Under the pieces are notes generated by a model. The model saw only the letters and a list, made by a program, of their open reading frames with translations, was not told the DNA's origin and ran no database searches. Source: an uncultured Chloroflexia bacterium (GTDB lineage: Bacteria; Chloroflexota; Limnocylindria; Limnocylindrales; CSP1-4). From it: 64,000 bases of DNA. A program made the position numbers and the translations under genes. The first letter of the stretch is position 1; every line of letters starts with the position of its first letter. The DNA lies in NCBI GenBank assembly GCA_963816135.1, contig CAWFJD010000019.1, positions 1,397 through 65,396 of the forward strand, in the 5' to 3' direction. Of the stretch, positions 11,098 through 59,426 are shown piece by piece.

Positions 11098-11736
11098 GTG
11101 AAGCGGGTCGAACCGTCGGATCAGAAGAGCCTGATCGCGATCGCGAAACGGTCGATCGAGGATGCAGTCTGCGGTGATGGACGCGGACGGCGACGGGCGG
11201 CCGCGAATGACGCGGTCTCCGACGAGGCCGCGCTCGTGCTCTCCGCGGCCCTGCTCGAGCCGGCGGGCGCGTTCGTGACCCTCCGCGAGGACGGCGAACT
11301 GCGCGGTTGCATCGGCCTCCTGCGGTTCGACGTGCCTCTCTGGGAGAACGTCCGAGATGCGGCCGCGGGCGCCGCGCTGAACGATCCCCGCTTCCGACCT
11401 GTCGACCGGGGAGAGCTTCGCCGTCTGGATCTGGAGATCTCCGTCCTGGAGCCGCCGGTGGAGATTCGGGATCCGGCGCTCTTCGAGGCCGGCAGACACG
11501 GGATCGTCGTAGAGCGAGGCCTGCGGCGTGGCCTGTTGCTGCCCCAGGTGGCGCCCGAGATGGGTTGGGGAAACCTCGAGATGCTCGACGGTGTCTGCCG
11601 CAAGGCGGGCCTGCCACCGGATTCCTGGCGGGATCGCGCGACGCGCCTCTACGTGTTCGAGGCGACTTGCTTCGGCGAAACGACCGACGAGCAAGCGGAT
11701 GAGCAGTCTGGCGCGCACGCCCCGACGGCCGATTAG
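11098..11736 (+). CDS. amrA: AmmeMemoRadiSam system protein A (AMMECR1 domain)
   Basis: GAFVTLREDGELRGCIG..NDPRFRPV..LEISVL..HGIVVE..GLLLPQV, typical AMMECR1. GTG start. Confidence 0.9.
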   Translation: MKRVEPSDQKSLIAIAKRSIEDAVCGDGRGRRRAAANDAVSDEAALVLSAALLEPAGAFVTLREDGELRGCIGLLRFDVPLWENVRDAAAGAALNDPRFRPVDRGELRRLDLEISVLEPPVEIRDPALFEAGRHGIVVERGLRRGLLLPQVAPEMGWGNLEMLDGVCRKAGLPPDSWRDRATRLYVFEATCFGETTDEQADEQSGAHAPTAD

Positions 11737-14440: not shown

Positions 14441-15128
14441 TCACTCCTGGTCCTCGGCGAAGCGATAGCCCACGCCGTAGACGGTGAGGACGTAGCGCGG
14501 CCGAGCCGGATCCGGCTCGAGCTTGTGGCGAAGGTTCTTCACGTGGGCGTCGATGGCCCGCTCGTACGTCTCGAAGGCCAGGCCGTGGATGGCGTCGAGG
14601 AGCTGGGCACGGGTGAAGATTCGGCCGGGCTGGCGGGCCAGCGTCAGGAGCAGCTGGAATTCGGTCGGCGTCAGCTCGACCGTTCGCCCGTCCGCCTCGA
14701 CGCGCATTCGGGCGACGTCGATCGCGACGCCGGCAGCCTCGATTTCGATCGCCCGGTTCGCCCTGGCGGTCGACGCGCCGCAGGATGGCGCGGATGCGGG
14801 CTACCAGCTCGCGCGGGCTGAACGGCTTGGTGACGTAGTCGTCCGCCCCGATCTCGAGGCCCAGGATCCTGTCGAGCTCGTCGTCGCGGGCGGTGAGCAT
14901 GACGATCGGGACGGTCGAATCGCGGCGCAGTTCCCGGGCCACGTCGAGGCCGTCCATGCCCGGCAGACCGAGGTCCAGCACCAGGACGTCCGGCTTTCGG
15001 GTGCGGGCCGCGCGCAACGCCGAGGGGCCGTCGGTGGCGGTCAGGACCGCGAATCCGGCGTGCTCGAGATAGTCGCGCGCCAGATCGACGATGCGCGGTT
15101 CGTCGTCGACGACGAGAACGGTCTTCAC
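14441..15128 (-). pseudogene. OmpR/PhoB-type response regulator, one apparent +1 frameshift near 14761
   Basis: Receiver domain VLVVDDE..VLVLDLGLPGMDG..TKPF in ORF 14082..15128. Winged-helix domain (LTPTEFQLL..YGVGYRF) is ORF 14441..14707 in the next frame. Confidence 0.85.
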
Positions 15129-32821: not shown

Positions 32822-33900
32822 CTAGTTCGACTTGTCGAGCTTTACCACGGAACCTGTTGCCGATGAACGCCGGGCCGCCTCGAGGACGTCGAGGGCGAGC
32901 ACCGAATCATTAGGGTCTACGGGCATCGGAGCGCCATCCCTCAGAGCGGCCCCCAGACCGGAGTAGAAGTCCTGGTATCGACCTCGCTCCGTGCGTACCG
33001 GATGCGTGTCGCCTTCCGGGCCGAGCAATCCCCAGTGGTCCGGATCGTCCTCGCCCCAGCCTTCCGCGTCGGGGCGGCCACCGGCCGCCAGGGCATCCTC
33101 CTGGATGTCCAGCCCGTACTTCGTGTAGCCGGCTTTGTCGCCCAGGACCCGCATTCGGGGGCCGAGCTGGGCCGCGGTCGCGCTCATGAAAAGATGCGAG
33201 CGCGTGCCGGAGGCGTGGGTCAGGGCCACGAACGAGTCGTCGTCCACCTGCGCTTCCGCCCGGCGAGTGTCGATTTCGCCGTACACGTGCGTCGCCGGCC
33301 CGAACAGCTGCAGCGCCTGGTCCACGAGATGAGCGCCGAGGTCGAAGAGTTGGCCGCCGGCGTCTTCGGGCGACGGGTGCTCCCGCCACCCCGGATTGAT
33401 CTCCGGCCGCCAGCGCTCGAAACGGGACTCGAAGCGCAGCACGCGGCCCAGCGCGCCTTCTGCCATGAGCTTCTTGACGGTCAGGTAGTCGCCGTCCCAG
33501 CGGCGATTCTGGAAGACGGTCAAAGCCACGCCCTGGCGGGCGGCCTCCTCGATGAGGTTCCGTCCTTCCGCTGCCGTCGGCGCGAGCGGCTTGTCCACGA
33601 CCGATGGCCAGGTGGTGCTGGATCGCGGCCAGGGCCATGGGCAGGTGGAAGCGATTTGGCGTGGCCACCACGACGACGTCCAGGTTCGCCGCGTCTTCGA
33701 AGAACCGCTCGGGGCTGTCGAACAGACGCGCCCCCGGATGTTCCCGACGTGCGATCGCCTGCCGCTCGGGATTGGCCGTCAGGATGGCCGCCAGTTCGAG
33801 TCCGGGAACCGCCTTCGATCAACGGTCCGTGGAAGACGTGTCCGGCCAAACCGTAGCCGAGCAGGCCCACTCGTACCGGCGACGTCGAGCTCACTGTCAC
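32822..33900 (-). pseudogene. Gfo/Idh/MocA family oxidoreductase, two apparent +1 frameshifts near 33813 and 33601
   Basis: Rossmann N-terminus VRVGLLGYGLAGHVFHGPLIE (ORF 33520..33969). The middle segment AVPGLELAAILTANPERQ..VVVATPNRFHLPMALAAIQ is in the 32910..33671 frame. The C-terminal 258 aa are ORF 32822..33598. Confidence 0.85.
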
Positions 33901-35744: not shown

Positions 35745-35758
35745 TGCAACAAGTTGCA
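35745..35758. promoter_or_regulatory. Palindrome TGCAAC-AA-GTTGCA upstream of the Ni/Co permease (possible Fur/Nur-type or other metalloregulator site)
   Basis: Perfect 6-2-6 inverted repeat about 100 nt upstream of the ATG at 35856. It resembles the TTGCAA-containing Nur-box half-sites, but with different spacing. Confidence 0.3.
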
Positions 35759-35855
35759 ATTAGGCGGGGCGAATCGGGATTTTGGGGCATCATTGCGACT
35801 CGTCCCAGAGCCCTCGGCGCATCGAGCGCCTGATCCGTTTCGGTACGAGGTAGCA

Positions 35856-36926
35856 ATGCTTTCAACCGCCCGGAGACTCTTCGGCACCTCGCCCGAGCTC
35901 CGACGCAGAATCGTCCGTCTCTACGCGTTCCTGGTCGCGTTCAACGTGGTCGCCTGGGGCCTCGTACTCGTGGCGTCGATTTCGTACCCGATTCTGCTTC
36001 CGACGGCCCTGCTGGCCTACAGCTTCGGCCTGCGCCACGCGGTCGACGCCGACCACATCGCCGCCATCGACAACTCGACGCGCAAGCTGATGCAGGACGG
36101 CAAGCGGCCGGTGGCCGTGGGGCTGTTCTTCTCGCTCGGGCATTCGACCATCGTCGTCGCGCTCTCGGTCCTGATCGCCGCTTCGGCCGCCTTCATCAGC
36201 GACGTCCAGAACGGCACCTTGAGGTCGATCGGCGGAATCGTCGGGACGATCGGTTTCGGCGTCGTTCCTGCTCCTGATCGGCTTGATCAATCTGGTCGTG
36301 CTGTTCGACATCTACCGGATGTTCCGAAAGGTCTCCGCGGGCGGCACGTACGACGAGGAGTCGCTCGAGGACTACCTGTCGAGCCGCGGCCTGCTGGCCC
36401 GACTTTCCGCCCGGCGCTCAAGTCGATCCGCGAGAGCTGGCACATGTACCCGCTCGGCGTCCTGTTCGGGCTCGGTTTCGACACGGCCTCGGAGGTCGCG
36501 CTGCTCGGCCTGGCCGCTACGTCCGGCGCGTCGCATCTGCCGATCTGGCTGATCGTCCTGCTGCCGGCCGTCTTCGCCGCGGGCATGTCTCTCGTCGACG
36601 CCACCGACGGGGTTCTGATGCTCGGGGCATACGGCTGGGCCTACATCAAGCCGATCCGGAAGCTCTACTACAACCTGAACATCACGCTCGTGTCGGTGCT
36701 GATCGCGTTCCTCGTCGGCGGGCTCGAGGCGCTCAGCGTCATCGGCTCCGAGCTGGGACTGAGCGGCGGCATCTGGGCGCTGGCCGGCGGCTTGGACATG
36801 GGCATGATCGGCGTCGCGATCGTCGCTCTTCTCGTCGGCAGCTGGCTCATCTCCACGCTGATCTACCGCTGGAAGCGCTACGACGAGCGCGGCCCCTCCA
36901 CCCCGAACAAGGTGCCGACGGCGTAA
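35856..36926 (+). pseudogene. NiCoT (HoxN/HupN/NixA) family nickel/cobalt permease. Compensating +1 (near 36251) and -1 (near 36407) frameshifts.
   Basis: Signature RHAVDADHIAAIDN and LGFDTASE in ORF 35754..36926. The intervening conserved segment (SASFLLLIGLINLVVLFDIYRMFRKV..) is ORF 36283..36552 in another frame. Confidence 0.88.
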
Positions 36927-37096: not shown

Positions 37097-37935
37097 TCAG
37101 TGGCCCAAAGGTTTAGGCCGCGCTCCGTCACCCGGTCTTGCCTCCGATCTCGACCCTGTGACGGCCCCGCCGGGCCCTTGCGGGCGTTTGGGCGATCGGA
37201 CCCGTGTCATGTTGCGACTGGCTTCTCGCTTAGTGTCGCTGTGATTGGCATCTGACCAGAAAGCCATGCCAGAGGTGGCGACTCGAGGGTTCCGGAGGAA
37301 CGAGTCCAGCGATCGGCCGTCGAGCGCGAAGCGCGCTCGGAGCAGTGCTGCGTGTTCTGCCGCGTGGCGACGATTCGTCCGGGTGTCCGTGACTACCAGC
37401 CAAACGCTCAACAGTTCGGGCGCCCAGCCGCGCTCGACCGCGATCTTTCGGGCAAGTCGTGTCTTTCGGTCCAGCGTTCCGAGCATTTCATTGAAATCGG
37501 CGAACTCGGTCTTGAGTTCCACGAGGAGCAAGTGACGCGTGGCGGCGTGCCAGCCCAGCTGATCGATGAAGCCGCGCTCGCCAAAGATTGAGAACGAGAC
37601 CTCGGGCTCGACCACCCAGCCGCCGCGACCGGACACGAAAGCGGCGAAGCTGTCGGCCAGGAGCGAGTGTCGACGATTCAGCAGGCGCTCCCCATCGCCG
37701 CCCCGCCATCTCCCGAGCAGGCCCACCTGGATGTCAGCCGCGGCGCCGATCGCCCGGATCGTCTCCATCGAGAGGTGGGCGAAGTGTCCGTTCTCCACCA
37801 GCGAAACGGTGGATCGGGCGACGCCGGACGCTACGGCAAGATCTTCCTGGCGAAGTCCGCGGCGCAGCCTGACGGCGCGGATCAGCGCACCGAACTCCGA
37901 TCGTCCATCACCTGAGTCTGGCCCGGGGCACTCAC
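37097..37935 (-). pseudogene. XRE-type HTH protein with C-terminal PD-(D/E)xK-like domain, apparent -1 frameshift near 37893 just after the start
   Basis: ORF 37097..37798 extends upstream without a start through the HTH (LRRGLRQEDLAVASGVARSTVSLVENGH). GTG..ATG (VSAPGQTQVMDDRS) lies in the neighbouring frame. C-terminal motif GERGFIDQL..LLLVELKT. Paralog of 57972..58655. Confidence 0.7.
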
Positions 37936-38147
37936 CCGCGACTTATCGTGGCCCGCCGTCGCCGCCCCGCAGGCCAACGAGGTTGCGCGTAATCGAGCCG
38001 AAAGGAAGCAACGCTCAGGCTCGGCGAGTTCTCAGGTCGGTGGAACCGGCGGTCTCCTCCTGGTGCGTGGCCTCGTCTGGCAGGACGGGGCCACGCGATT
38101 TCCGCGGCCACGGCGCCGCCTGGGGGGACGCCCCTACGCTGGGCCCG

Positions 38148-39056: not shown

Positions 39057-39081
39057 ATTGCACGCCGGCTTCGGGCCTGGT

Positions 39082-40180
39082 CTACGGCCCCGGCCGCCAG
39101 GCGCGGCTGAGGAGGAGGGACCCGGCGGCGAGGAGCCCGCCGATGGCCACGAACACGACGCTGACTTCCTCGACCTGATGCTTGACGATCAGGTTGAGCG
39201 GCAGGCTGGCGAAGACGCTGCTGAGATCGCCCGCGCTTTCGGCCGGGTAATACTTGCCGCCCGTCATGTCCGCGATCTGCTGGAGAGTGGCTTCGTCGAT
39301 GCCGCGCCGGAAATTGCCCACGCCGGCGTCCGCCACCACCGAACCGCCGCCGCCGCCGAACCCACCACCGAATCCGCCGCCGATCCCGGGCTCGCGGCCG
39401 AGGAACTGGGAGGCGCAGGTCGGGTCGAGTGAGCCGCCTTCGGCGGTCCCGAAGCCGATCGTGTAGACCCGGATGCCGCGATCGACCGCCTGCTGCGCGG
39501 CCGTGACCGGATCGATCCCGGCGTTGCTCGCGCCGTCGGTGAGGAGGACGACGATGTCGGGCGCGTAGTCGCCTTTCGGAACCGGGGCCGCCGCCGGCCC
39601 GGCTGCCGTGGTGTCCGTCGTGGTCTTGGCCACGCTCGGATCCACTTGCGAGATCGCGTCGATCGAGGCCAGCAGTCCCTCGCCGATTGCGGTCCGGCGG
39701 CCGACGGCCAGGCTGCCGACGGCCGAGAGGAGCTGATTGGTGTCGGTGGTCGGTGGCTGCACGACGGCGGCGAAGCTGCTGAACGCGACCAGGCCGATCT
39801 GGGCCGAAGCCGCTTTGCCATTGACGAAGTTCGACGGCGGCGGATTCGGCCGCGCCGAGCCGTGTGGGCGCGATATCCGTCGAGCACATGCTGCCGGAGA
39901 CGTCGATCGTGAGGATGATCGTGGTCTGGTCGGTCGGCACCGGCACGATGGCGACCGGCCGGGCCGCGGCCATGATGAGCGCCCCGAGCGCGGTCAGGAA
40001 CAGCACGAATGGCAGATGCCGGCGCAGCCGCGACGAGCCCGGCGCCGCGACCCGGATCAGCTCCAGGCTCGAGTAGCGGACGGCCGTCGGGCGGCGCCGG
40101 CGCAGGCTCCAGGCATAGACGAGCACGGCGATCGGCAGCAGTACCAGGAGCACGAGGAAGCTCGACCACAGGAAGTTCAT
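39082..40180 (-). pseudogene. VWA domain-containing protein (BatB-like), one apparent +1 frameshift near 39837
   Basis: MNFLWSSFLVLLVLLP..ILTIDVSGSMCSTD (MIDAS DxSxS) in ORF 39053..40573. Continuation FVNGKAASAQIGLVAFSSF..LLTDGASNAG..C-terminal TM is in ORF 39082..39762. Confidence 0.8.
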
Positions 40181-40239
40181 CGGGCGCTCACCTTCGGGAG
40201 GCGGCTCGGGGCGACACGGCGAGCGTCCACGTAGCTCGT

Positions 40240-41299
40240 TCATGGCATTCGCCCCAGCCAGAGCATCGAACCCATGCCCCCGGCGAGGAGCAGCAGGACG
40301 CTCAGACCCGCGAAGACGGCCGTGAGCTCGGTCAGCTCCGGCGTGGACGACGAGCTGGGTGTTGAGGTTGTCGTACACCGACCGGAGCTGCTGGGCATCG
40401 GTTGCCGAGTAGTACGTCCCGCCGGTCAGCTGCGAGATCTGCTGGAGCTGGCCGGCGTCGAGCGTGGTGTGGACGTGGACGCCGTTGACGTCGAGGTCGG
40501 TGCCGTTGGCGCTGCCGATCCCGACGGTGAAGATGCGGACGCCTTGTTTCGCGGCCGCCTGCGCGGCGACCATCGGATCCGGGTTCTCGTTGTTCTCGCC
40601 GTCGCTCAGAAGGACGATGACCGCCGGAGCGTGATAGCCCTGCGGGACGGGCGTCGGCGCCGGCGTCGGGGCCGCCGACGAGAGGGAGTAGTAGTTGTTC
40701 GCGTAGGGGCCGCGATTGGCGGCCGCGATCGCGTCGAGCGAGGCGGTGATTCCCGAGGCGAGGGAAGTGCCCTTCTGGGGAGCCAGCCGGTCGATGGCGT
40801 TGGCGATGGTCGCGGGATCCGTCGAGGGAGCCTGGACCGACGATGCCGGAATCGGAGAACGCCACGACGCCGATCGAGATCCCCGAAGGCTGATTGGCCA
40901 CGAAGTCCTTGGCCGCGGTCCGGGCGGCCGCGATTCGGGTCGGCGAGATATCCGTGGCGGCCATGCTGCCCGAGACGTCGAAGGCGAGGATGACGGTGCC
41001 CTGCTCGCGCGGCAGCGCGACGACGGCCTGGGGCCGGGCCAGCGCCACGGCCATCATGATCATGCCGCCGACGACGAGGGCGCCGGCGATCGCTCTGGCA
41101 GGGGTCGTTCGGCCGGCGCCGCTGCCGGTCTGGGCGCCGCTTGCGCCGCCGGTCGCGGCGCCGCTGCGGGCCAGAGCCGCGGAACCGTAAGCCCGGGCCA
41201 AGGGCGCGCCGCCGCCGGCGGTCCATGACCCGGAACAGCCACATGCCGATCGGCACGAGGAGGAGTCGAGAGCAGCATGGGAGGCCAGATGAACGACAC
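40240..41299 (-). pseudogene. VWA domain-containing protein (BatA-like), four apparent +1 frameshifts near 41268, 41203, 40839 and 40341
   Basis: AGGAGG-N5-GTG start. Pieces VSFIWPPMLL / LLLVPIGMWLFRVMDRRRRRA / ..ILAFDVSGSMAATD..GVVAFSDSGIV / VQAPSTDPATIANAIDRL..VLLSDGENN..TVGIGS.. / PELTELTAVFAGLSVLLLLAGG..* lie in ORF frames 41060, 40606, 40332, 39053 and one more. Confidence 0.8.
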
Positions 41300-41301
41300 C
41301 G

Positions 41302-42127
41302 CTACCTCCTGCCGCGCCGGCTGCGAAGGCTGGCCATCCGGACGATGGACCGGACGAGGTCGTCGTCGGTGGACATCGAGACGGCTTCTACGCCGGCCCG
41401 CCTGAACGACGTGGCCACGGCAGCTTCGCGCGCCGCCGCGGCTTCGGCGAACCGCCTGCGGAAGCCACGGTCGTGCGTGTCCACGTAGATCTGCTCGCCC
41501 GTTTCTGCATCTTCGAGGATCAGCGGGCCCGCGTCCGGCAGCTCGATCTCGCGCGGATCGAGAAGTCGAACCGCCACTACCTCGTGGCGGCGGTTGAGCA
41601 TGCTCAGCGGCCTGTCCCAACCCGGCACGGAGATGAAGTCCGAGATGACGAACACGAGAGAGCGCCGCTTGATCGTGCTCTCACCGGCGGCGAGCAGCGG
41701 CGCGAGGTCGGTCAGACCGCCCCGGTTCACCCGTGGCTGGCGGAGCAGCGAATCGATCAGATGGAGCACCTGGTCGCGGCCGCCTCGCGCCGGCACCGGC
41801 GCGATCCCCTCGCCAAAGAAGATCGCGCCTACGCGATTCCCGCGCCGGGTCAGCAGCCGCGCGAGCGTGGCCACGAAGTCGATGAGGACGGTTCGCTTGA
41901 CCCGCTCCGTCTCGAGCGTCCCGAAGTCCACCGAAGGGCTGAGGTCGAGCAGGAACCAGGCCGTGATCTCGCGGTCTTCGTTGTATTCGCGGACGTAGGC
42001 GTCGTCCATCCGGGCGGTGACGTTCCAGTCGATGTACCGCACGTCGTCGCCGGGCTGGTACTCGCGCAAGCCCGGCCAGGTCCACACCGTTGCCCCGGAA
42101 GAGGCTCCGGTAGTCGCCCTGGAGCAT
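41302..42127 (-). pseudogene. DUF58 domain-containing protein, one apparent +1 frameshift near 42066. The true start is probably further upstream (up to 42376).
   Basis: MLQGDYRSLFRGNGVDLAGL (ORF 41681..42127) joins REYQPGDDVRYIDWNVTARMDD.. (ORF 41302..42087). The upstream frame stays open to the MoxR stop with no ATG/GTG/TTG. Confidence 0.8.
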
Positions 42128-42372
42128 GCCGTCGAGGCGGCGGATGACCGCCCAGTCGAGCCGCTGGAGGATTCGTTCGGGCGTCGTGATCGTCCCGCCG
42201 GACGACGCGCTCGATCTGTCGGCCTCTGCCTGCTTCTGCCCGGGCGACCTCGGCGGAGCCGCGGGAATCCGAACCGTGGGCGTCGGGCGCGGCGAGGAGG
42301 CCGGCCGCGCGGCCCCGGGTCGGCCTCGGAACCTCGAGCGTTCGGCGGCGGTAAGTGGACGACCCCGCTCGC

Positions 42373-48217: not shown

Positions 48218-49584
48218 TCAGTGTTCCTGGCCGTGCTCCGAGCCGGCGTGAGTCGAAATGGGCAGGAAGACCCGGAACGTGCTGCCGCGGCCCCGCTCCG
48301 TCCTGACCTCCATGGCGCCGTCGTTGGCCCGCACGAGGCCCAGGGCCACGGGCAGGCCCAGGCCGCGGCCGAGGAACTTGGTCGTGAAGAACGGATCGAA
48401 GGCGTTGTGCAGCGTCTCCGGATCCATTCCTTCGCCGCGGTCGGTGACCTCCAGGCAGGCATAGGGGCCCGACGCGGGAGTCCAACCCGGCGACAGGAAG
48501 GCGGACGGCCGGACGGCCCCGGCCGGGAGTTCGAAAACCGACACGCCCAACTCGCCCTCGCAGTTGGTCATCGCTTCGGCGGCGTTGGCGACCAGATTCG
48601 TGAGGATCTGGTCTATGTCGATGGAATTGGCCCGGACCAGGAGAGGGTGATCCGGCCAATCCGACCCGGACCCGGACGTTCGCCGGCAGGTTGTGAGCCA
48701 GGCCGGAGAGCGCCTCTCGGCAGACCCGCACCAGGTCCAGCCGCCGCTTGGTCCGGAGGCTCTGGCCCAGGTAGGCGAGCATCAGCTGGCCGACGCTGGA
48801 AGCCTGCTCGGCCGCTTCCCTGGCGTGCTCGATGTCGCTCCGGGGATTGCCGCCGCCTTTGAGCTCTTCGAGGGCGATGTCGAGATAGCCGGTCACGGCC
48901 GTGAGCTTGTTGTTGAAGTGATGGGCGACGGCCGCGGCCATCCTGGCGAGGCTTTCCGACTTCTCGGCCTGCCGGAGCTTGGCCTCCAGCCGCAGGCGCT
49001 CTTCCTCAGCGTTGGCTCGCTCGAGTACGAGCCCGATCCGATGAGCCATGGCCATCAGCAGGTCGCCGTCGGACCGCGAAAAAGGGGTCATCTGGCAGCG
49101 GGCGAGAAGCAGGACGCCGAGGACCTTCTGCGGGCCGTTGATCGGCAGCCAGGCGGCACTACGGACGCCGAGTTCCTCGAGCTGAGGGTCGAATTCGGCA
49201 GCCGTCGGTGGAGCCCTCGCACAGGACGGCCGATTTGCTTCCGATGGCTTGGAAGGCGCAGCTGCCTTCTGTGCTCGAGAACGAACTGATCATCTGCTCG
49301 TCCGGGAGGCCGATCGCGCCCATCGGGCTCAGCGTCGAGGCAGTCTCGCTCTCCAGAAGGGCGACGACGTCCGCAGCGAAGAGGGCCGAGAGGGCCAGAA
49401 GCACCCGATCGACCACGACGGCGATCGGCGCCGGTTCGCTGAGGATGGCGAACAGCTGATTGAGCCGGGTCGTGTCCCTGATGGCGATCTGATACTCGGC
49501 GAGGGGCGCGTCGGATCGAAGCTCCGCGATACCTGCCGCGGCGCCTGCCGTCTCGTCATCTTCATCGCGAACCGGATTGACCAC
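48218..49584 (-). pseudogene. GAF-domain sensor histidine kinase, two apparent +1 frameshifts near 49205 and 48662
   Basis: The GAF-like N-terminus is ORF 49159..49584. The H-box (AAAVAHHFNNKLTAV) is ORF 47895..49091. The HATPase_c (ILTNLVANAAEA, VTDRGEGMD, GRGLGL) is ORF 48218..48571. The frames step one way. Confidence 0.8.
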
Positions 49585-57758: not shown

Positions 57759-57776
57759 GGACCGGCTCCGGCCGCC

Positions 57777-57950
57777 GCCGGCGCCACTTTCCGGCCGCCT
57801 GGGCGGCGCGAGTCTCCGGCCGCCCGGGCGGCGCGAGTTTCCGGCCCCGGCCGCCCGCCGGCGCACTTTCCGGCCCCGGCCGCCCGCCGGCGCACTTTCC
57901 GGCCGCCCGGCGGCGCACTTTCCGGCCGCTCGGCGGCTGCGTCCGGCGGC
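57777..57950. repeat. Imperfect GC-rich tandem repeat, 6-7 units of 22-31 bp with core GGCGC(A/G)nTTTCCGGCC
   Basis: Seen directly between the convergent stops of the sigma factor (57758) and the HTH gene (57972). Confidence 0.7.
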
Positions 57951-57971: not shown

Positions 57972-58655
57972 CTAGATCGTCAGTATTCCATCGGCGCGCG
58001 GGACCCAGCCCGCCGAAAGCGCCGCAACGAGCGCGGCCTGATCCAGCGGCATCTCGGGCCGCATGGCGTCGCCGTGGACCCGAAGCACGTCCCGATTGTG
58101 TCTGGTGTCACCCACGAGCAGGATTACCGCCCCGATCGAGGGATCGTCCCGCTTCTTCAGTGCCAGCCGACGCTGGAACGCTTGAATGTCACCGAGGCGG
58201 GTTTCGGCCTCGATCGCGACTCGACCTGCCGGCAGGTCGATCACGGCGTCCCAGGCACGCGCGTCGCCTACAAGCGGCAGCGGGACTTCGAATCGCCACG
58301 CAACCCCGCCAGGTAACGTCAGCCGGCCGCGCTCCAGCAGCGCGCGATGGGCGGCGTCGCGGATCGGATTTCCACCCGGGTAGGCGCGCACGGCAAGGTC
58401 CAATCCCGTGACCGCCGCCAACCGGGATGCCTGCAGGATCGACAGGCCGGGGGCATCTCCACGTTCGATGCGACTGACCTGGCTTGCCGACAGGCCTGCG
58501 GCTCGGCCGACCAGCGTCTGGCTCAGCCCGTGTTCGAGCCGAGCGCCCCGTAGCGCTTCTCCGAAGGCACGAGACGATGCGATTCCTCGTCTCGAACCTC
58601 GATCGACCGGCCTTTCGCTTGCTGCCATCGCGCGAGTCTCGCAGAGCCCGCTCAC
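57972..58655 (-). CDS. XRE-type HTH protein with C-terminal PD-(D/E)xK-like domain (paralog of 37097..37935)
   Basis: HTH LEHGLSQTLVGRAAGLSASQVSRIERGD. C-terminal ..ARAWDAVIDLPAGRVAIEAETRL..VILLVGDTRHNR. Intact, GTG start. Confidence 0.75.
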   Translation of the reverse strand: MSGLCETRAMAASERPVDRGSRRGIASSRAFGEALRGARLEHGLSQTLVGRAAGLSASQVSRIERGDAPGLSILQASRLAAVTGLDLAVRAYPGGNPIRDAAHRALLERGRLTLPGGVAWRFEVPLPLVGDARAWDAVIDLPAGRVAIEAETRLGDIQAFQRRLALKKRDDPSIGAVILLVGDTRHNRDVLRVHGDAMRPEMPLDQAALVAALSAGWVPRADGILTI

Positions 58656-58715
58656 CTGGCGCTTATCAGCCTCCGGTCGTGGCTTGGTTTGGGCGCTCGT
58701 CCCTCACCCCTGCCC

Positions 58716-58770
58716 GTTCCTGCCTGGCGCCTGCTCGTTCCTGCCTGGCGCCTGCTCCCTCCTGCCTCAG
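58716..58770. repeat. 21-bp tandem repeat (GTTCCTGCCTGGCGCCTGCTC, 2.6 copies)
   Basis: Seen directly 60-115 nt upstream of the HTH gene start. Confidence 0.6.
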
Positions 58771-59150: not shown

Positions 59151-59424
59151 GCCGCCGGAACCAGCCCCGCCGGAACTAGCCCCGCCGGGAACCAGCCCCG
59201 CCGGAACCAGCCCCGCCGCCAGCCCCGCCGGAACCAGCGCCGCCGGAACCAGCCCCGCCGGAACCACGCCGCCGGAACTAGCCCCGCCGGAACCAGCCCC
59301 GCCGGAACCAGCCCGCCGGAACCAGCCCCGCCGGAACCAGCCCCGCCGGAACCAGCCCCGCCGGAACCAGCCCCGCCGGAACCGGCGCCGCCGGAACCAG
59401 CCCCGCCGGAAGTGCCGCCGCCGG
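59151..59424. repeat. 15-bp tandem repeat array, ~18 copies of CCGGAACCAGCCCCG with a few variant or indel units
   Basis: Seen directly. It ends 2 nt before the stop codon of the VOC gene at 59427. Unit lengths are 15, with single units of 16, 12, 14 and 14. Confidence 0.9.
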
Positions 59425-59426
59425 AA

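Follow-up and report, generated by a model that had tools for sequence, protein, structure and literature searches.

What might two small genes that couple a DNA-binding domain to a nuclease-like domain do in a bacterial chromosome, and why does the same short block of DNA stand at the 5′ end of both? The question is raised by a 64,000-nucleotide stretch of contig CAWFJD010000019.1 (hereafter the window) from an uncultured bacterium of the Limnocylindria, a class of abundant, uncultured soil and freshwater Chloroflexota in which, to our knowledge, nothing is known about gene regulation. A preliminary description of the window, made from the sequence alone, had singled out the two genes as each encoding an XRE-type helix-turn-helix (HTH) followed by a restriction-endonuclease-like signature, with a shared 5′ leader. 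We find that gene 1 (37097..37908, minus strand; ATG start at 37908-37906, stop at 37099-37097) and gene 2 (57972..58628, minus strand; ATG start at 58628-58626, stop at 57974-57972; 218 aa) represent two families, here called family 1 and family 2, of what appears to be a large and undescribed group of proteins, that the shared block is in all probability a promoter, and that the same promoter design precedes comEA, encoding a DNA-uptake receptor, and recJ, encoding a single-stranded DNA exonuclease.

Judged by sequence comparison, the two genes are real, diverged paralogs of an uncharacterised protein family. Their products share 26% identity across ~200 aa (BLASTP, E-value 2e-8), and alignments of family 1 and family 2 homologs matched each other with a hhalign probability of 99.1% (E-value 1e-18). 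Both families show the same layout, comprising an N-terminal XRE HTH, a short flexible linker and a C-terminal domain of ~135 aa; the common architecture, the XRE-type HTH and the minus-strand orientation of both open reading frames (ORFs) put forward in the preliminary description were thus confirmed. The HTH scored above the Pfam HTH_3 cut-off of 23 bits in gene 1 (37742..37882, minus strand; E-value 9e-9, 35.6 bits) as well as in gene 2 (58395..58553, minus strand; E-value 1e-8, 35.4 bits), and above the HTH_31 cut-off of 27 bits (35.4 and 35.3 bits, respectively). When compared to known structures, the gene 2 HTH superposed on C.BclI, ClgR, HipB and SinR over ~60 residues (Foldseek probability 1.0, root-mean-square deviation 0.8-1.5 Å), and the closest matches in both structure and sequence were the restriction-modification (R-M) controller proteins C.BclI and C.AhdI.

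The C-terminal domain (gene 1, 37241..37711; gene 2, 57975..58382; both minus strand) was without a match in Pfam, NCBIfam, PADLOC, PHROGs and a profile search of PDB sequences, in keeping with the earlier statement that no named family could be recognised. The signatures quoted at that time, GERGFIDQL...LLLVELKT in gene 1 (putative catalytic Asp at 37564-37562, Glu at 37519-37517 and Lys at 37513-37511, the last two forming an E-x-K motif at 37519-37511) and ARAWDAVIDL...VAIEAET in gene 2 (Asp at 58250-58248, Glu at 58211-58209 and Glu at 58205-58203, forming an E-x-E motif at 58211-58203), are present, as is the DTRxNR-type tail of both genes, and these motifs fall in columns that are invariant over both families (E, D and E, then D, K and R, and N-R). 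AlphaFold modelled the gene 1 C-terminal domain with a pLDDT of 90.4 and a pTM of 0.85, and full-length gene 2 with a pLDDT of 90.6. The modelled gene 1 domain has an alpha-beta-beta-beta-alpha-beta core (helix 6-27, strands 32-42, 45-55 and 60-67, helix 73-93, strand 100-108). In a Foldseek search of the PDB with the isolated gene 1 domain, the nine best matches, and the majority of those with a high Foldseek probability, were PD-(D/E)xK or restriction-endonuclease-like proteins, with the restriction-like endonuclease (RLE) of the R2 retrotransposon on top (E-value 6e-4, TMq 0.53); further matches included Bax1, bunyavirus cap-snatching endonucleases (LACV), AF1548, VC1899, Card1/Can2, Cas4, SfsA, MunI and BstEII. 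The TM-scores of the PD-(D/E)xK matches were modest (0.3-0.53), and ranks 35-46 of the search included low-probability metallo-beta-lactamases. The models thus predict a PD-(D/E)xK restriction-endonuclease fold with a putative acidic, metal-binding triad, and the nuclease-like signature noticed in the preliminary description gains support from both structure prediction and Foldseek.

As modelled, the domain resembles the R2 RLE, Bax1, Cas4 and Card1/Can2 in its core topology, with the Asp on beta2 and the ExK motif on beta3, and the fusion of a separate DNA-recognition module to a small nuclease-fold module is reminiscent of FokI. It differs from these minimal PD-(D/E)xK nucleases in having no detectable sequence similarity to them, in reaching TM-scores of just 0.4-0.53 and in occurring in the context of a chromosomal regulator, and its activity is putative. 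Among 24 family 1 homologs, D113 (beta2) and E128-x-K130 (beta3) were invariant or nearly so, and among 24 family 2 homologs D127, E140 and E142 (ExE, without the canonical Lys) were invariant. The gene 2 site had been suspected of being catalytically altered. Since a D..ExE arrangement is also used by BamHI, and since all three acidic residues are kept without exception in the sampled family 2 proteins, a loss of activity is not a compelling reading, and the gene 2 motif need not indicate an inactive enzyme.

A profile search with the C-terminal domain retrieved 2277 clusters (50% identity) at E≤1e-3 and 1304 at E≤1e-10, which defines a large unannotated family of about 2300 such clusters, so far labelled simply ‘XRE regulator’, whose C-terminal domain can now be placed in the restriction-endonuclease fold. 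In most of the 150 clusters listed, the domain is found at about residues 83-216, behind an N-terminus of HTH size. The named matches derive from Limnocylindrales metagenome-assembled genomes (MAGs) and one Dormibacterota MAG, and the family appears almost confined to the class Limnocylindria; some genomes encode several family 1 copies. A literature search returned nothing on this protein family or on the promoter motif described below, and the family, the domain combination and the motif all appear undescribed.

The DNA in front of the two genes was compared with that of homologous genes, using 47 family 1 loci from species-representative genomes (nearly all MAGs from Limnocylindria or other Chloroflexota, with one from Dormibacterota) and 80 family 2 loci from metagenomes. 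Start-anchored upstream profiles could be built for 46 family 1 and 66 family 2 loci, and start codons, stop codons and Shine-Dalgarno (SD) sequences were counted in 45 and 66 loci (111 in total). In the window, the ungapped block GATAAG-N5-GGTGAG-N10-SAGACTC occurs at just two sites when ≤3 mismatches are allowed (chance expectation 0.02). One is the proposed promoter of gene 1 (37914..37947, minus strand), with GATAAG at 37947-37942 (−39), GGTGAG at 37936-37931 (−28) and CAGACT at 37920-37915 (−12 to −7), and a position weight matrix (PWM) score of 25.3; the other is that of gene 2 (58634..58667, minus strand), with GATAAG at 58667-58662, GGTGAG at 58656-58651 and a −10-like GAGACT at 58640-58635 (PWM score 26.1).

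The profiles of the two families are alike, with GaTAAGC at −39 to −33, GnnAAG at −28 to −23 and a weaker gTTGATC at about −50, the most conserved unit bases being TAAG at −37 to −34 and AAG at −25 to −23. The blocks are spaced by 11 bp and constitute head-to-tail units with the consensus aGATAAGCsss, located at −39 and −28 and sometimes also at −50. They are followed by a −10-like hexamer cAnnnT at −12 to −7, in which A(−11) is found in 35/46 family 1 and 49/66 family 2 loci and T(−7) in 36/46 and 48/66, respectively. The geometry is simple: the last unit, six bases, the hexamer, another six bases and the start codon, with the A of the ATG as +1 in both window genes. SD-like 4-mers are rare (2/45 family 1 and 9/66 family 2 loci). 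Because the A(−11)/T(−7) hexamer sits where a −10 element must be and SD-like 4-mers are nearly absent, we infer that the first base of the start codon (A or G) is also the first base transcribed, which yields a leaderless mRNA. The blocks are fixed DNA sequences without codon periodicity across the 111 loci. All of this argues that the conserved 5′ block is upstream, non-coding DNA and represents a promoter. The conserved leader of the preliminary description was therefore real as an ungapped block, which is kept across homologs, and was mistaken in being read as coding.

No −35 hexamer was found in the family promoters, and neither a sigma-70 −35/−10 match nor a terminator was found near gene 1. 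The units themselves were rejected as −35 elements of the sigma-70 family, as GATAAG lies 21 nt and the proximal unit 10 nt from the −10 element, compared to the 16-19 nt required, and as the arrays can reach 10 units. An RNA leader or riboswitch was likewise rejected; neither upstream region has a match in Rfam, and transcription would start only downstream of the blocks. The result is a conserved promoter type that would be leaderless, without a −35 element and equipped with phased 11-bp repeats. As further observations on these regions, hairpins between the two blocks are visible by eye in several loci, upstream of the inferred transcription start site, and in one locus (L005:5890-5992) the complete family 1 promoter is present twice, with a distance of 51 bp between the copies. 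Directly upstream of the gene 2 promoter lies a 21-bp tandem repeat of 2.8 copies (58709..58767, minus strand; TRF), which by eye looks like a decayed duplicate of the two-unit module (GCGCCAGGCAGGAACG vs GCGCCAGGTGAGCGGG).

A PWM of the −40 to −6 region was then used to scan about 0.9-0.97 Mb of related DNA. The scan recovered the starts of family 1 and family 2 and, at many loci, another site that stands in front of comEA (confirmed by its SLBB and HHH_3 domains), at a distance of 3.6-6 kb downstream from family 1. Arrays of 2-10 tandem 11-bp units were found ahead of comEA in 14/14 of the loci from related Limnocylindria genomes at which comEA was seen; six bases past the units these promoters have a TAnnnT hexamer (TAGCGT, TAGGGT or similar), followed by a leader of ~30 nt and a GGAG Shine-Dalgarno sequence. 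Two further hits were located in front of recJ, and seven more Limnocylindria recJ genes were then retrieved by protein homology alone. Arrays were present in 9/9 contigs, and in each of these the start codon coincided with the predicted +1 or was 1-2 nt away from it; the seven genes retrieved by homology all had units and a cAnnnT hexamer, after correction of the called start in four of them. Four gene classes (family 1, family 2, comEA(-comEC) and recJ) thus share one promoter design. Weaker PWM hits (window position 11698 on the minus strand, L108, L058, L010 and others) lacked a start codon or gene where one would be expected and were taken to be chance matches.

Several minor features of these loci were also recorded. 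The public calls of the recJ loci L131, L134, L135 and L136 start 8-46 codons too far upstream, and the promoter geometry together with a conserved (M/V)LEPR(F/H)RW N-terminus points to a downstream, leaderless start; in long contigs, many recJ calls are split into two ORFs (DHH, then DHHA1/RecJ_OB). The unit arrays seem to grow by tandem duplication (L008:9662-9771; L005:5890-5992; L029:10381-10446), and the array of 10 units upstream of comEA in L008 has a 33-bp super-period. Irregularly spaced GATAAGC-like units, possibly due to chance, occur at L128:2369-2408, and also in L129 and L130, ~30 nt upstream of a small gene pair. The pair lies at a distance of ~5.5 kb from a family 1 paralog, and its products, neither of them with a recorded Pfam match, look by eye like a VapB-like antitoxin and a protein with a PIN domain (VapC-like).

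Which protein might recognise the units? The motif is present in the own promoter of every paralogous copy examined, including the one from Dormibacterota, and a motif in a gene's own promoter is the usual signature of an autoregulated factor. No other DNA-binding proteins seem to be linked to the motif with such regularity, and the family proteins are the most economical candidates for binding it because their HTH is of a sequence-specific type, because the sites stand in their own promoters and because no other regulator is consistently encoded nearby. We put it at about an even chance that family 1 and family 2 proteins are autoregulated transcription factors of a DNA-uptake/recombination regulon that bind the units themselves. 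In such a mechanism, proteins of one or both families would bind the phased units via the HTH, oligomerise through the nuclease-fold domain, regulate their own genes and control the uptake and recombination genes. They would most likely be activators that replace the missing −35 contact, as we infer that a protein on the phased units stands in for that contact. The nuclease-fold domain would serve oligomerisation and might possibly also respond to a signal derived from DNA or act as a nuclease. The label ‘nuclease-derived regulator’, offered in the preliminary description, is a fair one.

The system to which the family would be most akin, by our reading, is activation of the PafBC type. In mycobacteria, the HTH-WYL activator PafBC controls a DNA-damage regulon that is independent of RecA, with an activator site that abuts a −10-only promoter and takes the place of a −35 element, many leaderless targets among DNA-metabolism genes, and an HTH combined with an effector domain that possibly senses DNA. 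The family proteins differ in having neither a WYL domain nor a winged HTH, their effector domain being of the predicted PD-(D/E)xK fold; their presumed site consists of phased GATAAGC direct repeats and not of the PafBC motif, and they belong to another phylum. The family belongs neither to the PafBC nor to the OmpR/SARP group; its membership is in the XRE HTH family and, by fold, in the PD-(D/E)xK superfamily. The link of these proteins to comEA and recJ offers a testable candidate for the control of uptake and recombination genes in this lineage, and would add a rarely described use of the nuclease fold in a transcription factor.

A number of points weigh against autoregulation through the units. 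Binding of the units by the family proteins is deduced indirectly, from sequence, and the position of the transcription start is deduced from geometry. XRE dimers normally read inverted repeats, and head-to-tail 11-bp repeats abutting a −10 element are typical of winged-helix activators of the OmpR/PhoB and SARP types. No clear covariation between the unit sequence and the recognition helix of the HTH could be seen by eye. The invariant catalytic-type residues suggest an enzyme and not a mere scaffold. The scanned DNA was biased towards family neighbourhoods and the regulon is incompletely known, gene 1 is frameshifted as assembled, and both window copies lie outside the canonical leuS and rpoD contexts described below.

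Several of these points favour an explanation in which a third-party regulator, an OmpR/PhoB- or SARP-like winged-helix activator, binds the GATAAGC units and the XRE-nuclease proteins are members of its regulon. Their role could then be that of second-tier regulators in a cascade, or of HTH-guided nucleases or DNA-processing factors that handle incoming or damaged DNA together with ComEA and RecJ. Direct 11-bp repeats of up to 10 units that replace a −35 element and end at a fixed 6 bp from the −10 element are the classic layout of OmpR/PhoB and SARP sites, the D..ExK and D..ExE motifs are invariant in the samples as in active enzymes, and the shared promoter places the proteins alongside genes for a DNA receptor and an exonuclease. 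However, a gene for such a regulator is not a regular neighbour of any of the four gene classes, the motif accompanies each paralogous copy as far as Dormibacterota, and proteins with an XRE HTH above Pfam thresholds are overwhelmingly sequence-specific transcription factors, this HTH type also being what sets the family apart from the winged-helix groups. We regard a third-party activator as the main alternative, possible though doubtful.

Rather unlikely, in our estimate, is an extension of the autoregulatory model in which the PD-(D/E)xK domain would be a sensor or nuclease for DNA (ends, single strands, or incoming or damaged DNA) that switches the XRE protein into an activator, and in which the family 1/2 pair would be the master switch of natural competence or of a DNA-damage response in Limnocylindria, a logic like that of PafBC but built on a nuclease fold. 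The two paralogs might form a hetero-oligomer that reads two unit types, GATAAGC and GGTGAGC.

The regulation could also have the opposite sign, with the proteins binding the units as autorepressors and as repressors of comEA and recJ, in a DdrO/LexA-like manner, and being inactivated by a damage or competence signal, possibly via the neighbouring YgjP-like metallopeptidase. Most characterised XRE regulators are repressors, the proximal unit (−28 to −18) overlaps a region that RNA polymerase must occupy, and a recognisable −35 element is often missing in high-GC Gram-positive promoters. Furthermore, at 13 of the 38 family 1 loci (L011:4630-5574 and L014:4680-5744, both minus strand, and 11 others), the adjacent gene, divergent and 250-400 bp upstream, encodes a YgjP-like metallopeptidase (PF01863). 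This recalls DdrO/IrrE of Deinococcus and ImmR/ImmA, where an XRE-family regulator, as here proposed, governs DNA-repair or DNA-related genes and where a metallopeptidase is its partner, as the adjacent gene might be at about a third of the family 1 loci. The peptidase is, however, YgjP-like and not of the COG2856/ImmA-IrrE type, and DdrO has a palindromic operator and a C-terminal domain that is not of the nuclease fold. No peptidase gene stands beside either window gene or beside the closest relatives of gene 1. No unit covers the −10 element or the start site, and the fixed spacing of six bases from the last unit to the −10 element in four unrelated gene classes looks like the geometry of a contact between a bound protein and the polymerase. 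Repression is, to our mind, improbable.

A role in defence or addiction, or an origin as a mobile-element remnant, had been suggested in the preliminary description, and would make the proteins either an R-M controller (C) protein fused to an endonuclease or a fused toxin-antitoxin. It is encouraged by the resemblance of the HTH to C.BclI and C.AhdI, by the literature on C genes, many of which have leaderless transcripts and are autoregulated from operators directly upstream, by the restriction-enzyme fold of the C-terminal domain and by the presence of several copies per genome. C proteins are, in contrast, stand-alone dimers of ~80 aa that bind palindromic C-boxes and are encoded beside R and M genes, whereas the HTH here is fused to a ~135-aa nuclease-fold domain, the presumed sites are repeated head to tail, and neither the window neighbourhood nor any of 130+ homologous loci contained R or M genes. 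More generally, no methylase, toxin, integrase or transposase was found near either window gene or near homologs, which bears out the earlier remark that such partners are missing. In PADLOC only HTH-only models matched (HTH_VI, control protein, CapH and the RmrA N-terminus, over residues ~2-68 and ~19-78), PHROGs likewise matched both proteins through the HTH only, and the promoter motif is common to comEA and recJ. The NCBIfam antitoxin model TIGR03070 gave 39.1 and 25.7 bits, far under its cut-off of 71.65, and a type II antitoxin (HipB/Y4mF, HigA, MqsA) was rejected on such scores and on the missing toxin neighbour. With the conserved housekeeping neighbourhoods of the homologs added, a present-day defence, addiction or mobile-element function is very unlikely; an ancient controller-endonuclease fusion is conceivable as the origin of the family, because the HTH most resembles R-M controller proteins.

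Least of all do we credit the start codons first proposed, GTGs within GGTGAG (37935 and 58655) that would turn the blocks into an N-terminal peptide, V-S-x-x-x-(Q/E)-T-x-x-M, after a short leader: an in-frame GTG does lie 27 nt upstream of the ATG in both window copies and one homolog (P0026) is called with a similar 9-aa extension, but a start codon at −27 occurs in only 21/111 loci (7/45 family 1, 14/66 family 2), an in-frame stop separates −27 from the real start in 35/111 (16/45 and 19/66), homologous proteins begin at the downstream ATG or GTG, the fixed, aperiodic blocks also stand ahead of unrelated genes and have no Rfam match, and the peptide is an accident of the two window copies. 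Family 2 homologs, in particular, are mostly 218 aa long, which is the modal length, and start at the Met equivalent to the ATG at 58628. The models of both window genes could thus be corrected relative to the source annotation, which has truncated products of 223 aa and 139 aa.

The preliminary description had also reported a 1-nt deletion right after the start of gene 1, and the deletion is real in the assembly (37895..37899, minus strand). Homologs of gene 1 begin MD(D/E/N)xQ(F/L)G, and an alignment with homolog DNA places a single-base gap at codons 4-5, where gene 1 reads CGG|AG TTC and homologs encode M-D-D/N-R-Q-F/L-G (MD(D/N)RQ(F/L)GALIR). As assembled, the frame is broken after codon 4; the ATG frame reads MDDRSSVR* with a TGA at 37884-37882, and the HTH frame is without a start codon. 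On a leaderless mRNA, the deletion would cut gene 1 short after 8 codons. Other window genes are split in a similar manner: a GFO/IDH/MocA oxidoreductase at 32825-33891 (minus strand) is distributed over three frames, with breaks near 33816 and 33605 and a joint E-value of 3e-138 against one homolog, and two further genes (~14459-15119 and ~48260-49103, both minus strand) have high-scoring segment pairs in two frames. This suggests frequent assembly indel errors or local gene decay. As other genes in the window are frame-split, an assembly indel is the likely cause of the deletion, and the organism itself may well carry an unbroken gene 1.

Both families are conserved chromosomal genes of Limnocylindria that, in the loci sampled, usually lie beside housekeeping genes (leuS; dnaG/rpoD). 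The typical order around family 1 is cysE-cysK-cmk-(YgjP-like peptidase, divergent)-family 1-leuS-x-comEA-comEC, and among the 38 loci leuS was a neighbour in 22 and comEA in 11. Neighbours of family 2 in 22 loci were an rpoD-type sigma factor (10), a rhodanese gene (8) and dnaG (7). In the window, where comEA and leuS are absent, both genes are monocistronic. Gene 1 is flanked by a gene for a NicO nickel transporter, which is convergent, and by an Acyl_transf_3 gene, which is divergent, and its closest relatives are likewise found in other contexts; gene 2 has a convergent gene for an extracytoplasmic function (ECF) sigma factor (with DUF6596) on one side and, on the other, a repeat-rich spacer, beyond which PNPOx-like and glyoxalase genes are located.

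Tandem-repeat tracts surround gene 2 at 57766-57937 (23-29 bp period, downstream), at 58709-58767 (the 21-bp repeat mentioned above) and, further upstream, at 59152-59426, where 17.6 copies of a 15-bp period read as PEPAP/AGTSP-type repeats in several frames. In the NicO gene (35754-36926, plus strand), the codon phase of third-position GC content (GC3) switches at ~36240-36420 and the Pfam match falls into two stretches; the pattern may reflect a double frameshift, which is suggested by GC3 and not proven by Pfam, or a variable loop. Finally, the GC3 codon phase switches often over the ~3 kb at 39061-42300, which could contain several short genes or frameshifts.

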